Below, in pieces: positions 20,564 to 28,123 of a stretch of 64,000 bases of DNA. The DNA lies in assembly GCA_965237955.1 (NCBI GenBank), contig OZ250169.1, positions 1,920,001 through 1,984,000 on the forward strand. Direction: 5' to 3'. A program made the position numbers and the translations under genes. The stretch is from Candidatus Marinacidobacterales bacterium. GTDB lineage: Bacteria; Acidobacteriota; Vicinamibacteria; Marinacidobacterales; SMYC01. The notes under the pieces were generated by a model. That model was not told the DNA's origin. It did not search any database and saw only the letters and a list, made by a program, of their open reading frames with translations. How positions within the stretch are numbered: position 1 is the first letter of the stretch; each line of letters starts with the position of its first letter.

Positions 20564-21277
20564 ATGCCCTCGACACGATTCGTTTGGCTCTTAGGCTGCG
20601 TTTTGCTCTGCGCTCTTGCCGCCGGCTGTGGCGGAGGCGGCGGTCCGGCGGCCGAACCAGAGACAGTGGCTTCCGCGCCACCATCCGTGCCTTCCGGAGA
20701 CTCCGCCGACGAAGCGGGGTTAGAGGGGCTCGAAGAGGATTCCGAAGAGGGAGGATCTGATATCGCGACCGGCGCGTATCCGGTGGTCGAGATGCGCACC
20801 AACGTCGGCACGTTGGTGCTCGAGCTCTATCCTGACAAAGCCCCGAAGACCGTCGACAACTTTCTCTCGTATGTGCGCGGAGGGTTCTACGACGGGACCA
20901 TCTTCCACCGTGTCATGCCGGGGTTCGTCATCCAAGGCGGAGGGTTTACCGCGGACATGATGAAAAAAGACACCGAGCCTCCCATCGAGAACGAAGCCGA
21001 TAACGGGCTCTTGAACCTCCGGGGAGCGATTTGCATGGCGCGCACGGACGATCCCCAAAGCGCCACATCGCAGTTCTTCATCAACACCAAAGACAATCCG
21101 GCGCTCGATTTTCTAGAGCGCTCGCCCAGAGGTTGGGGCTATGCCGTGTTCGGCAAATTGATCGAGGGAATCGAGGTATTGGATAAGATCGAAAGCGCGC
21201 CCACGACGAGCCGAGACGGCTACCAGGACGTCCCCGTCGACGTCATTGTAATCGAAAGCGCGCGCATCATTAGCTGA
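20564..21277 (+). CDS. cyclophilin-type peptidyl-prolyl isomerase, lipoprotein
   Basis: LAAGC lipobox; APKTVDNF, FHRVMPGFVIQGGG, MART.DP.SATSQFFIN, YAVFG. Confidence 0.93.
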   Translation: MPSTRFVWLLGCVLLCALAAGCGGGGGPAAEPETVASAPPSVPSGDSADEAGLEGLEEDSEEGGSDIATGAYPVVEMRTNVGTLVLELYPDKAPKTVDNFLSYVRGGFYDGTIFHRVMPGFVIQGGGFTADMMKKDTEPPIENEADNGLLNLRGAICMARTDDPQSATSQFFINTKDNPALDFLERSPRGWGYAVFGKLIEGIEVLDKIESAPTTSRDGYQDVPVDVIVIESARIIS

Positions 21278-21330
21278 TGAGGCGACACTGCGCGCAGTTC
21301 CGGGGGTGTCGACCAGTGGAAGAAAAAATA

Positions 21331-21429
21331 ACGCAAAGTCGCAAAGTCGCGAAGTCGCAAAGGGGTCGACGCCGCTTTGCTTCACTCGATTCGAGTTCTT
21401 TGCGCCTTTGCGTCTTCGCGCCTTTGCGA
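21331..21429. repeat. inverted pair of octamer tandem arrays (CGCAAAGT)n...(CTTTGCGC)n
   Basis: Four 8-nt units on each arm around a ~35-nt spacer. Confidence 0.8.
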
Positions 21430-21463
21430 TTGTTTTTTGGCAACGGCCACTAGGCACTCGCAC

Positions 21464-22702
21464 TTGTCGCTGCGCGTGCTCCTGCTGCTGCCAACATCGA
21501 CTTACCGCACCCGCGACTTCATGGAAGCTGCGGCCCGACTAGGGGCTCTGGTCGTCGTCGCATCGGAAGAGCCCTCTACGATGGAGCGCCTCGCGGAAGA
21601 TTCGTTGCTGACGCTCGATTTCCTCGACGCTTCGGGATCGGCGGCGAAAGTGGTTTCGTTCCATGAGCGGTACCCGCTGAGCGCAGTCGTTTCCGTCGAC
21701 GAAGAGACGGCCGTCGTGGCCTCGACCATCTCCCAGAAGCTCGGTCTTCCTCATAACGCTCCCGAAGCCGCGATGCGAGCACGGCTCAAACACGTTATGC
21801 GCCGCGTCCTCGAAGCGGAGGGAGTTCCCGGTCCCGCGTATCGCGTGCTCGATACTGGGGACGATCCACGCCAGGCTGCGAGGCAGTTGCGCTATCCCGC
21901 CGTCGTCAAGCCGGTGTTTTTGTCAGGAAGCCGGGGAGTGCAACGGGTGAATGACGAAGAAGCGTTCGTCGGTGCGTTCGAGTGGTTGCGAAGCTTTCTC
22001 TCGCATCGCGACGTCAGAAAGCGCGGCGGCGAGCATGCAAGTGTCGTTCTACTGGAGGACTACGTACCGGGAGCCGAAGTTGCCCTCGAAGGGCTCTTGT
22101 CCGACGGGAAGCTCGAGATGCTCGCGCTCTTCGACAAACCCGATCCGCTCGAAGGCCCGTACTTCGAGGAGACGATCTACGTCACCCCGTCCCGGCTGTC
22201 GTCCGCGCTCAAAAACCAGATCGTCGAGGTCACGACACGTGCCGCTACGGCGCTTGGCTTGCGCCATGGCCCGGTCCACGCGGAGCTGAGACTGCCGCCT
22301 GAGCGCGCACCCTCGGTGATCGAGATTGCCGGAAGGTCGATCGGCGGGCTCTGCTCGCGGACGCTCCGTTTCGGTCTCGGCCTCTCTCTCGAAGAGCTGA
22401 TTTTGCGCCACGCTCTGGGTCGAGACGTGTCCGGTCTCGATCGTGAAGGGGGCGCTGCCGGCGTCATGATGATCCCAATCCCGAAAATGGGCATGCTCGA
22501 AGAGGTCACCGGCCTTGACGAAGCGAAGGCAACGGACGCGATCGAGGATGTAATCATCACCGCCCCACTTGGACGACGACTCGTACCTCTACCGGAAGGC
22601 TCGAGCTACCTGGGCTTCATCTTCGCCCGCGCCACGACACCCACCGAAGTCGAAGAGGCACTACGCGAAGCCCACCAAAAACTACGCTTCGCGATCAGCT
22701 GA
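21464..22702 (+). CDS. ATP-grasp domain ligase (L-amino-acid-ligase-like)
   Basis: K..MR..L, YPAVVKP..LSGSRGV, LLEDYVPG.E, FDKPDPLEGPYFEET, HAELR, IEIAGRSIGG; start TTG21464 inferred. Confidence 0.88.
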   Translation: MSLRVLLLLPTSTYRTRDFMEAAARLGALVVVASEEPSTMERLAEDSLLTLDFLDASGSAAKVVSFHERYPLSAVVSVDEETAVVASTISQKLGLPHNAPEAAMRARLKHVMRRVLEAEGVPGPAYRVLDTGDDPRQAARQLRYPAVVKPVFLSGSRGVQRVNDEEAFVGAFEWLRSFLSHRDVRKRGGEHASVVLLEDYVPGAEVALEGLLSDGKLEMLALFDKPDPLEGPYFEETIYVTPSRLSSALKNQIVEVTTRAATALGLRHGPVHAELRLPPERAPSVIEIAGRSIGGLCSRTLRFGLGLSLEELILRHALGRDVSGLDREGGAAGVMMIPIPKMGMLEEVTGLDEAKATDAIEDVIITAPLGRRLVPLPEGSSYLGFIFARATTPTEVEEALREAHQKLRFAIS

Positions 22703-22743
22703 TGGCCGACGGCTGATGGCCGATGGCGTGTCGGCGGCCAAAT

Positions 22744-23334
22744 TCACTTCGACGGAGCGTAATAAGGGTTTCTTCCCGTCGCGTGGTCGGTCGTGTCCAT
22801 GATCGCGCCGATCTGGGGGACGGCTTGGCGGATTGATTTTTCCACACCCTGTTTCAACGTCACGTCGGCCATGCCGCAACCCTGGCACCCGCCGCCCATT
22901 TTAATGAAGACCTCGTTATTCTTGACGTCAATGAGCTCGACCCAGCCGCCGTGCGCGGCGACGGCGGGATTGATCTCGCCGTCGAGGACGCTTTGAATTT
23001 TCTTCTTGATCTCCTCGGGATCGGGAAGAGCGCGAAGCGCGTCTTCGGCGATCGGCGTCTCGTCGCTCGAAAGCACCGAGCGGATCACAGTGCCGACTTG
23101 CTTGGCGATCGGCATCCAGTTGCCGCCGGTCGCCGCGGAGACGGTGACGACGCTGTCCTGGACCAGGACCGACTCGACGGTGTCGATCGCGAAGATCTGT
23201 TCGGCTAGGGGCGAGCCCTCGGCTTGCGCCTTGGCGCCGAAATAGATGGAGCCGTCGGGATAAACGGGCCTGTCCACCGTGAAGCGACAGGTCTGGTCGT
23301 CCTTGGGCTCTGCCTGGATGCTTATCTCGTCCAT
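22744..23334 (-). CDS. Nfu-type Fe-S cluster carrier (Nfu_N + NifU-C)
   Basis: SPLAEQIF N-terminal domain; INPAVAAHGG...MGGGCQGCG...TLKQGVE...DTTDH. Confidence 0.9.
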   Translation of the reverse strand: MDEISIQAEPKDDQTCRFTVDRPVYPDGSIYFGAKAQAEGSPLAEQIFAIDTVESVLVQDSVVTVSAATGGNWMPIAKQVGTVIRSVLSSDETPIAEDALRALPDPEEIKKKIQSVLDGEINPAVAAHGGWVELIDVKNNEVFIKMGGGCQGCGMADVTLKQGVEKSIRQAVPQIGAIMDTTDHATGRNPYYAPSK

Positions 23335-23342
23335 TTTTCCTC

Positions 23343-24755
23343 CTAATACGGTTCCATGATACTACGGCGCGGCCCCGCTTCCGAGAGGACCAACTGGTCC
23401 TCGGTAGGCTCCGCTCAGCAAAACCACGCTTCGGTGAGGCGGGGCGCTTTGGCCGTCCCGGCTCCGAGTGGCACGTTCACACCGACGAGCTCGGCTAGAG
23501 AACGGAAAACATCAGGGTTCGACAAGCCGTCGCGCGTTCCCGACGCGACCAGGGCCGTCGCCTCTTCGTGGAGCCGATCCATCTCTGGATCGGGATGGGT
23601 CCAGCGATAGGTGAGCGCGGCGCGATCCAACTCACCGAGGTGCGGTCGAAGCCCGGGGTTTTCGAGTAGCAAGGCTCCCGGCGGCAAGAGAAGCCTCAAC
23701 GTGAGCTGGATCGGGTCGACGTGGTGGATGAGGTCCTCGTCGGCCACCCAACGAAACAGCTCGCGATAATCGTCGTAGCTCGTCCACGGGGTGAACGCCA
23801 CGAACGTGGGTCGAAGGGCAATCCCGGCTTCGCGTGTGAGCGTCAAGACTTCGCGTGCATCTCGGGCGGTGTGGCCCTTGTCGAGCTCTTCGAGCACACG
23901 GTCGCTCAACGATTCCACGGCGGAAACGATGAAGGTGCACCCTGAGTCCGCGAGCTCTTCCAAGTCGTCGCGTCGCTTGAGAATGTGCTCCACTTTCGCG
24001 GTGAAGTCGAACGTCATCGCCGGATGTTCTCGATGCATCGCGCGGACGATCTCGAGCGCGTGACGCGGTCCGTTCAGAAAATCGGGATCGGCGAAGTTGA
24101 TGTGGCGCGCGCCCGCCTCGACGAGCTGTCGGATATCGGAGAGCACGGTTTCCGGGGGCACGACGAAAAAGCGTCCGTGGTAGACCGGGGGCAGAGGGCA
24201 GTGCCTGCAGTGATGGCGGCAGCCGCGACTCGCTTCGACGGTTCCGACGATCGCGTGCGATCCGTCGGTGCGCTCGACATGAACGTAGCGGTCGAGCTTC
24301 GGGAGCTGGGCTCGCTCGGGCACGAGATAGTCGAGTCGCTTCCGAAACGGTGCCGGTACCAGGGGCACGCGCTCGTCCCGGGTGATCCAGGACACCAGCG
24401 CTTCGTCGCACTCGCCACTCAAAACGGCATCGGCTCCGGCACTATCGACGAGCATTTCCGAGTTGAGGGTGGCATAGAGCCCGTAAAAGCAAAGTTGGCA
24501 GCCTGGATTGAGCTCCAGGACGCGCTCGGCCACGAGGACACCCAGACGGAGCGCCGTGTGCATCGGGACCGATACCGCGACGAAATCCGCGCGCCGTACT
24601 TTGTCCTCGTCGAGCGGATCCACGCCCAGATCGATGGCCTCGGCCTCGATGCCAGCGCGCTCCAAAAAAGCCAGTGGGCTCGCCAGACCCAACGGCTGGT
24701 GTCCCAACTCGTAGCACGAGATCAGGAGCACGTTGGGGCGTGCGGGATGGTGCAT
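23343..24755 (-). CDS. B12-binding radical SAM selenoprotein with a CUAEP tail (Sec at TGA 23415-23417)
   Basis: N-terminal B12-binding-like domain; SRGCRHHCRHC; readthrough gives TEAWFC-U-AEPTEDQLVLSEAGPRRSIMEPY* ending at TAG 23343, 8 nt before the nfu ATG. Confidence 0.88.
23381..23404 (-). promoter_or_regulatory. candidate bacterial SECIS hairpin
   Basis: Minus strand CC-GAGGACC-AGTT-GGTCCTC-TCGG beginning about 10 nt after the UGA; G in the apical loop. Confidence 0.65.
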
Positions 24756-24819
24756 GACACTATTTATGACTAATCTGGTAACAAAAGTCCAATCAAACGT
24801 TCGGGTGTTGCCCAGCCTT

Positions 24820-24970
24820 CGTGCCCGTGCCCTACCCCCTCCTCGATACTAAAATGATGATAGGAGCCATCGACTTCTGACTTCGAGCCCGGCTGCCGAA
24901 TGTGCGGCAATCTTGGACGTTTTGCCAGCGATGGCGCGCGAGCGAAAACGGATCGGGCACGGGCACGGGG
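24820..24970. repeat. inverted hexamer tandem units (CGTGCC)n...(GGGCAC)n
   Basis: CGTGCCCGTGCCC at ~24820 and CGGGCACGGGCACGGG at ~24954; similar single arms at 50390-50412 and 63827-63848. Confidence 0.55.
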
Positions 24971-25053
24971 GGTGGCAATCTAGTTATCGGGAACTGGATT
25001 CCATAAAACGGAACGTGCATAATGCACGGGCATCTACGCCGCCCATCTCACGG

Positions 25054-27259: not shown

Positions 27260-28123
27260 GTGAAAATCCTGGTGACGGGAGCCGGTGGGCTCGTCGGAAG
27301 CCTCGTCGTCGAGCGCGCGGCGGCGGATCATGACATCCGCGGTCTTGTGCGTGCCGAGCTCGACGTCACCGACCCGGGCGCCGTCCGGAGCGCCGTTCGG
27401 GAGTTTTCCCCGCACGTCGTGCTACACTGCGCGGCTTACACCGACGTGGACGGCGCCGAGCGCAACCCGGAGCGGGCCCTCGAAGTGAACGCGGATGCCA
27501 CCGAGCAGGTGGCGGTCGCGGCCAAAGAGCTTGGAGCGAGCCTGGTCTATGTCAGCACCGACTATGTATTCGATGGCAAAGGGGCGACGCCCTATCGAGA
27601 AAGTGACGCCACAAAACCTCTCTCGAGCTACGGGGTCTCGAAGCTCGAAGGTGAGCGACGGGTGGAGGACGCGTGTCCCGAGCGCTTCATCATCGTTCGC
27701 ACCGGTTGGCTCTACGGAGCCGGCAAAGGTTTTGTGGACTGGGCCCGCGCCCGCCTGGTCGGGTCCGAGCAGCTTCCCGTCGTCGACGATCAAAAAGGCT
27801 CGCCGACATACGCGGGCGATCTGGCCGATGCGCTTCTCGAGCTCGCCACCGGCGCTCATCGTGGCGTCTTTCATTTCGTGAACCAAGGGGAAGCAACCTG
27901 GCTCGACCTCGGCCGCGCCGTCGCCCAAGAGCTGGGCCACGGCCCGGCGAAGTTGAAGCCGATCCGTGGGGAAACGCTGCGGCGTCCGGCACCGAGACCG
28001 GCGTATTCGGCTCTGTCAGTCAGCCACTACGAGAAAACGACTGCAAAGCGCGTTCGCCCCTGGCGCGAAGCGCTGAACGCATATTTGCGGATGGCTGATG
28101 GCCGACGGCCGATGGCGGATTGA
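27260..28123 (+). CDS. rfbD: dTDP-4-dehydrorhamnose reductase
   Basis: ILVTGAGGLVG, AAYTDVDGAE, STDYVFDG, YGVSK, DQKGSPT, APRPAYS; GTG27260. Confidence 0.93.
   Translation: MKILVTGAGGLVGSLVVERAAADHDIRGLVRAELDVTDPGAVRSAVREFSPHVVLHCAAYTDVDGAERNPERALEVNADATEQVAVAAKELGASLVYVSTDYVFDGKGATPYRESDATKPLSSYGVSKLEGERRVEDACPERFIIVRTGWLYGAGKGFVDWARARLVGSEQLPVVDDQKGSPTYAGDLADALLELATGAHRGVFHFVNQGEATWLDLGRAVAQELGHGPAKLKPIRGETLRRPAPRPAYSALSVSHYEKTTAKRVRPWREALNAYLRMADGRRPMAD

Follow-up and report, generated by a model that had tools for sequence, protein, structure and literature searches.

Where does the radical SAM gene on the minus strand of this window (the whole 64,000-nucleotide stretch analysed here, from a Candidatus Marinacidobacterales bacterium) really end, and what would its product do? 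Under translation table 11 the open reading frame (24755..23415, minus strand) encodes 446 residues, closes with ...PRLTEAWFC and stops at a TGA. The initial annotation proposed that this UGA is recoded as selenocysteine (Sec), giving a vicinal Cys-Sec pair on a flexible tail. We asked how far the recoding holds up in this lineage and in the protein family, and which chemistry the pair might serve.

Family assignment of the radical SAM protein

When the TGA at 23415-23417 (minus strand) is read as U, the product continues as C446-U447-AEPTEDQLVLSEAGPRRSIMEPY, with 23 residues past the U (C-U-AEPTEDQL plus 15 further residues), and terminates at a TAG at 23345-23343; the stop after WFC and the read-through sequence had been described exactly. 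The read-through protein covers positions 1-466 of the 468 in the NCBIfam profile NF040546 and scores 601.4 bits, or 579.5 bits without the tail, against a cut-off of 500. By its sequence it is thus a member of this family, the CUAEP/CCAEP-tail radical SAM (seleno)proteins (an equivalog family), as had been suggested. The CX3CX2C motif (C179/C183/C186) is invariant in 112 aligned sequences and PF04055 is above its cut-off, and an N-terminal B12-binding-like domain is a weak match (PF02310, 27.2 bits vs a cut-off of 32.1). The NCBIfam runner-up is ArsL with 319 bits, and the remaining families, those of the B12-type radical SAM enzymes included, reach at most 57 bits. The gene is single-copy in the source genome and its relatives in the family carry the label Acidobacteriota. 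A search of the solved structures by sequence returned no close relative (best E 6e-8).

Sec recoding is already known for these proteins, since it is built into the curated family name, and the protein of the window is a new member of NF040546. It shares the CX3CX2C motif and the C-U-AEP tail with the family and matches its profile over nearly the full length. It differs only in that its SECIS loop has lost 1 nt, privately to this lineage, and in its last 16 residues, which are different and unconserved. In the portion available to us, Haft and Gwadz (bioRxiv 10.1101/2022.07.06.499078) term the family uncharacterised and tie CU motifs to heavy-metal binding. Our literature search for CUAEP, CCAEP and NF040546, which covered mostly non-subscription texts without bioRxiv supplements (those of the ArsL papers may discuss the family), found this mention and no biochemistry for the family, and the family terms tried gave no match in the accessible parts of a 2026 selenoproteome review and of the BSepDB paper.

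Table 1. Location of the genes and predicted elements around the in-frame TGA (positions in the window)
Feature	Position	Strand	Remarks
CUAEP-tail radical SAM predicted selenoprotein gene, read-through form	23343..24755	-	470 aa; NF040546 match
In-frame TGA, predicted Sec447 adjoining Cys446	23415..23417	-	Homologues have TGA or TGY at this place
Predicted bacterial SECIS, 7-bp stem, AGUU loop	23385..23402	-	Loop 19 nt past the UGA; 4 nt vs 5 nt in relatives
Lineage-private frameshifted tail end (LVLSEAGPRRSIMEPY, then TAG)	23343..23393	-	Unconserved; end predicted disordered
TATCAT, likely -10 box of an nfu promoter within the radical SAM gene	23356..23361	-	Within the gene's 3' end; nfu ATG follows after 21 nt
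Nfu-type Fe-S carrier gene, Nfu_N and NifU domains, CXXC	22744..23334	-	Frequent neighbour; housekeeping gene
ATP-grasp gene, L-amino-acid-ligase type (ATPgrasp_N, ATP-grasp_4, LAL_C2)	21464..22702	+	Convergent; start inferred, longest ORF from 21377

The TGA as a probable selenocysteine codon

The strong evidence for recoding is comparative, rather than a matter of folding energy or of the hairpin alone. Among 127 tails drawn from 136 loci of related genomes and metagenomes (nine loci gave no pattern match, several of them truncated at a contig end), the codon at the Sec position is TGA in 60 and Cys (TGY) in 67, and every one of the 60 TGAs is followed by AEP or SEP. An overlapping set of 200 loci from many phyla gave TGA in 102, Cys in 89 and nine unclassified, and of the 120 database matches listed, 102 terminate with W[FY]C, the other 18 running on into CCAEP. 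One natural Cys-Cys member occurs in Thermogemmatispora carboxidivorans (L228). The conservation past the UGA and the Cys-containing homologues that the initial annotation had asked for are therefore both present. On a tree of 93 proteins the Sec/Cys label requires 17 changes, at least six of which are forced by well-supported branches, so that Cys and Sec, as reconstructed from the sequences, swap repeatedly on the family tree; this speaks against the role of Se donor that had been among the suggestions for the pair.

The machinery is in place as well. The source genome has selA, selB and selD above their cut-offs together with the tRNA-Sec (selC), which is what the recoding proposal had called for, and in the phylum sample selA is found in 49/49 enzyme-bearing genomes vs 230/301 overall. 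Two other genes in the source genome served as positive controls, each with an in-frame TGA and a hairpin of the same form with a 5-nt loop. We take them, from recognised motifs, to be a formate dehydrogenase alpha-type gene near G000:C1 6965655 on the minus strand (...QARL-U-HGPTVASLA, AGUUU loop, 811 more open codons) and a DsbA/thioredoxin-like gene at G000:C1:6249356, also on the minus strand (YSDFQ-U-PFC, i.e. UxxC, with a 7-bp hairpin and a GGUCC loop), the latter being likely another selenoprotein. Separately, an ArsM-like methyltransferase match at G000:C1:2255675-2256367 on the plus strand (NF008823, below cut-off) contains one in-frame TGA, which is also seen in many relatives, and possibly represents a Sec-containing methyltransferase.

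Taken over the NF040546 family, the comparison makes Sec insertion close to certain, and for the lineage of the window we consider it highly probable that the TGA after WFC encodes Sec.

The predicted SECIS hairpin and its short loop

The hairpin GAGGACC-AGTT-GGTCCTC is indeed present just 3' of the UGA (23402..23385), beginning 12 nt past it. The bacterial SECIS consensus, as given in the part of PMC13188914 that we could consult, has a 3-9 nt loop, a 4-16 bp stem, a G in the first two loop positions, a spacing of 16-37 nt and an MFE of at most -7.5 kcal/mol. Compared by hand, the hairpin of the window lies within all of these limits, with a 4-nt loop, 7 bp, 19 nt and -14.6 kcal/mol (for the segment), and with a G at position 2 of the AGUU loop, followed by U. 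The five pairs closest to the loop are preserved in 44/52 distinct TGA versions vs 2/49 Cys versions, counts that come from sequences related by kinship and do not amount to a formal probability; the pair types vary at most positions across the TGA versions, and slid registers give 0-1 hits. The idea of a 3'-adjacent SECIS thus gained support from conservation and consensus. The folding energy is not unusual (z from -0.20 to -0.88 in four windows), and the z-score, not being significant, was dropped as support for the hairpin. As a chance background, the same hairpin rule is passed by 1.3% (48/3807) of the long open stretches that end in TGA across the genome.

The loop, 4 nt long in the window, has 5 nt both in the four nearest relatives of the alignment and in the two other SECIS-like hairpins of the genome, and the window is the sole TGA locus that pairs fully in a shifted register. 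These observations would fit a loss of function, in which the 1-nt deletion has weakened the SECIS, the TGA is mostly a stop in this lineage and the product ends at WFC. However, the stem, spacing, loop size, G-then-U and energy all agree with the accessible consensus (PMC13188914), the allele is unchanged in runs from three studies, and the C-U-A-E-P-T-E-D-Q codons are intact, and we regard a mere stop codon as very improbable. An assembly error behind the short loop could be ruled out, as the short loop recurs ungapped in near-identical contigs from three studies (X2 being perhaps the source sample). The extra loop base is present in a more distant strain, in 2/4 runs. The 4-nt loop is a natural allele. 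The lost base shifts the frame, and the residues past ...DQL are consequently private to this lineage, where close relatives read DQ[LF]GP[LI].

Relationship to ArsL

Judged from sequence, the nearest characterised relative is ArsL (NF040542, arsinothricin biosynthesis). The RCCLKC-tail proteins are 31-35% identical to our query (at best 35% over 411 columns), the C-U of the query aligns with the C-C of RCCLKC, and a tree groups ArsL and the CUAEP proteins against four other B12-type radical SAM proteins, with ArsL on a long branch that raised long-branch warnings. Domain order and the RGCxHxCxxC, DxD, PW and WxH motifs are shared. The query nevertheless stays below the NF040542 cut-off (319 vs 450 bits), its tail reads W-F-C-U-A-E-P with two ligands only, the third tail Cys of ArsL (CCxxC / RCCLKC) being absent, about 45 extra residues precede the tail, and many CUAEP members have Sec.

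According to the accessible parts of the ArsL literature (10.1101/2024.02.01.577332; 10.64898/2026.04.29.721666; PMC8552651), ArsL cleaves SAM at C-gamma to yield MTA and an aminocarboxypropyl (ACP) radical and adds the ACP group to the As(III) that the cysteines of its tail hold, with formation of a C-As bond, and removal of the tail abolishes the product but leaves SAM cleavage and Fe/S content unchanged. Serrano et al. report, in the part seen, that all three Cys bind As in ArsL (10.64898/2026.04.29.721666), and the ArsL papers, as far as they were accessible, describe it as the only CX3CX2C enzyme forming an ACP radical. ArsL also takes methylated arsenicals, and an 'MCCA' mutant is best on methylarsenate, as stated in the available text of a review (PMC13598754); from its name, we infer that this mutant keeps two cysteines.

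The genomic setting differs from that of arsinothricin biosynthesis, since ars-cluster genes (arsM, arsQ, arsN, arsR, arsB/C) are found neither near the window gene nor, with the exception of 4/201, at the loci of the family. ArsM-like genes are slightly enriched, in 37/49 enzyme-bearing vs 159/252 other genomes, and with this weak enrichment only, ArsM was rejected as a dedicated partner. An ATP-grasp gene occurs in 3/4 RCCLKC/ArsL clusters examined; the one product compared is 24% identical to the ATP-grasp protein of the window, so that the two need not be orthologous. Such ArsL-type arsenic clusters with an ATP-grasp gene lie on plasmids of Priestia, Alicyclobacillus and Pantoea (L286:3433-4967, L288:3124-4674 and L290:7464-8780), in two of them with a CMD-family gene preceding the ATP-grasp gene, hinting at arsinothricin-containing peptides. 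Our literature search found no paper in which arsL, ATP-grasp and arsenic appear together.

Predicted order of the tail and position of the probable selenocysteine

In thioredoxin-reductase-type tails the Sec is the last residue but one of a mobile C-terminal arm, and vicinal Cys-Sec pairs are redox-active elsewhere. The likeness to our protein is the vicinal Cys-Sec near the C-terminus, but here the Sec is not penultimate (in the TGA relatives 11-34 residues separate it from the C-terminus, and 23 follow it in the window), the tail is predicted to be ordered, and there is no flavoprotein core. In the AlphaFold2 model residues 431-440 have a mean pLDDT of 92 and residues 441-450 one of 87, and past DQL it falls to 74 and then 44. 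The conserved PRLTExWFC-U-AEP segment is thus predicted to be ordered and not floppy, which would fit a floppy shuttle arm poorly, and the flexible tail of the initial annotation is not borne out; the residues past DQL are probably irrelevant.

The same evidence bears on a second reading of the enzyme, as a cobalamin-dependent, canonical (5'-deoxyadenosyl) radical SAM protein with the Cys-Sec pair serving as a moving redox shuttle or as a carrier of methyl groups or metal. It could draw on the known redox activity of such pairs and on the B12-related matches given above, namely the PF02310 score under its cut-off and the B12-type radical SAM families at up to 57 bits. The predicted order of the conserved tail and the distance of the Sec from the C-terminus count against it, as does ArsL, which is non-canonical and has no reported cobalamin requirement (10.1101/2024.02.01.577332), and we consider this reading improbable.

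The ATP-grasp ligase

The convergent gene beyond nfu belongs with the L-amino acid ligases by its three Pfam domains, which are the same as in BL00235 (PDB 3vot, E 1e-38) and in the alanine-anticapsin ligase BacD (6e-21). It differs from these by a family-specific Cys (Cys297) in the motif R-x-I-G-G-x-C, invariant in 64/64 aligned members, and it reached no cut-off in NCBIfam.

The distribution of the ligase follows that of the radical SAM enzyme closely. In 41 related genomes both are present in 24 and neither in 17, and in 301 genomes of the phylum both occur in 48, the enzyme alone in one, the ligase alone in seven and neither in 245, that is, the ligase is in 48/49 enzyme-bearing vs 7/252 other genomes. 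These tallies are not independent, as kin share genes, and one of the seven ligase-only genomes is G063, an unpublished genome; five of the seven were rechecked for a missed enzyme and none held an orthologue, the best matches having 27-28% identity. The pairing includes genomes in which the genes are unlinked, and the ligase lies within 3 kb of the enzyme in 78/129 loci of at least 8 kb. We consider it probable that enzyme and ligase share a pathway, and a literature search on the pairing found no paper. Disrupted copies were also seen: G016 (74% complete; L049) has stops in both enzyme and ligase, and G061 (L280) has a frameshift just before the tail, each by assembly error or decay.

Two repeated elements were noted in passing. 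Short repeats, TGATGGCCGA/CGGCTGATGGCCGA, follow two gene ends in the window (22700-22730 and about 28090-28120), with a similar run at G000:C1:5999147, and are possibly units of a small intergenic repeat. Seven places in the genome (G000:C1:981690, 2842260, 3129704, 8069764, 3357915, 3008967 and 2872704) share a near-identical sequence of 120 nt or more, which is likely an insertion sequence.

nfu and the Fe-S neighbourhood

The read-through frame reaches into the AGGAGG ahead of nfu and leaves 8 nt up to the ATG of that gene (23334). This position, abutting the ribosome-binding site, was correctly noted in the initial annotation, but its weight as evidence for recoding was not upheld and we dropped the argument: among the window and those relatives whose nfu start could be recognised, the gap varies between 8 and 85 nt, the value in the window depends on the lineage-private 1-nt deletion, and nfu likely has its own promoter. 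A TATAAT/TATACT/TATCAT-type box precedes nfu in 23/28 loci, against about 0.04 matches per 50 nt genome-wide; a sigma-70 consensus scan of 21200-25000 found no promoter, and the -10 box is thus a product of comparison alone. Some relatives (L037-L041) seem to start nfu a few bases past the box, without a clear ribosome-binding site.

Nfu is present in 39/41 related genomes, including 15/17 that have no radical SAM gene, and was for this reason rejected as a dedicated partner; it likely only supplies clusters. The recurring neighbours in 201 loci are ATP-grasp (100), Nfu (59), DUF169 (26), YggX (22), the SaoD/DsrE family (15), IscA/ErpA (10) and CDGSH (9), in tallies where the heuristic gene caller may miss neighbours and many of the loci are short and related. 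With one DUF169 query, 14/301 genomes were positive, 12 of them enzyme-bearing, and the source genome had none at the same threshold, two distant PF02596 genes lying elsewhere in it; DUF169 was accordingly rejected as an obligate partner, with only those 12 enzyme-bearing genomes. The SaoD/DsrE-family gene (NF040913, above cut-off) is found in one Cys-type clade, convergent and directly after the enzyme (15 loci: L089, L096, L101-L117, L121, L125, L128).

This neighbourhood suggests a third reading, in which the selenoprotein serves sulfur or Fe-S handling. Its Cys-Sec pair would then hold a persulfide, or an auxiliary sacrificial cluster rebuilt by neighbours of the Nfu/IscA/YggX type, and a C-S or C-Se bond would be formed, e.g. 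in an ACP-thiol ligated into a small thiol peptide. Fe-S trafficking genes (Nfu, YggX, IscA/ErpA, CDGSH, Mrp/ApbC, SufR or DUF971) lie within 3 kb in 68/129 loci of at least 8 kb and in 30/63 cross-phylum loci, the SaoD/DsrE and DUF169 genes (15 and 26 of the 201 loci) point the same way, and ars genes are nearly absent. On the other hand, Nfu persists in most related genomes without the enzyme and likely has a promoter of its own, the Fe-S neighbour varies by lineage, the tail offers two ligands only, and in ArsL the removal of the homologous tail left the Fe/S content unchanged (10.1101/2024.02.01.577332). We regard sulfur or Fe-S handling as unlikely, if a little less so than the cobalamin-dependent reading.

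A possible aminocarboxypropyl transfer followed by ligation

With an ArsL relative and a co-occurring ligase, a more specific mechanism can be proposed than the redox shuttle or carrier of the initial annotation. The homology to ArsL, the alignment of C-U with C-C and the ATP-grasp genes in ArsL-type clusters point to an ArsL-like ACP transfer to an atom held by the Cys-Sec pair, followed by peptide ligation, a model based on sequence comparison that we hold with roughly balanced confidence. In it, the [4Fe-4S] cluster of the CX3CX2C motif would cleave SAM at C-gamma, a step we think somewhat probable in its own right; the docked tail would bind the substrate; the ACP part of SAM would be passed to a soft atom gripped by the Cys-Sec pair; and the ATP-grasp ligase would join the resulting amino acid into a peptide. 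That enzyme and ligase make a small molecule is likely. For the atom itself, the single most likely candidate is a trivalent organo-arsenical such as methylarsenite, since it needs just two thiol or selenol ligands, although even this choice has only perhaps a one-in-several chance of being right. Against ACP transfer and ligation we count that the commonest other neighbours concern Fe-S trafficking and not metalloids; against arsenic in particular speak the missing third arsenic ligand, the ars genes in only 4/201 loci and the slight enrichment of ArsM-like genes.

The genes of the enzyme-ligase pair were seen in Acidobacteriota, Methylomirabilota/Rokubacteria, Nitrospirota, Chloroflexota, Gemmatimonadota and others. 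They may belong to a widespread, undescribed two-enzyme pathway, in which ACP transfer by the selenoenzyme would create a carbon-metalloid bond and the ligase would then incorporate the new amino acid into a peptide, a proposal that we put forward tentatively and think more doubtful than the transfer and ligation themselves.

The recoding matters mainly for annotation, as the 102 of the 120 matches listed that end at W[FY]C are cut there. In the cultured Thermomicrobium roseum, the RefSeq protein (L287:6935-8371) is named CUAEP/CCAEP-tail yet ends at WFC, where read-through gives C-U-AEPLEDPSGPV. As for function, the close kinship to ArsL and the recurrent company of a particular amino-acid ligase narrow a family labelled 'function unknown' down to a question for an assay of two proteins. 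If the carbon-metalloid pathway were true, non-canonical SAM cleavage would extend to a second family of CX3CX2C enzymes, and an organometalloid metabolite would arise independently of ars operons.
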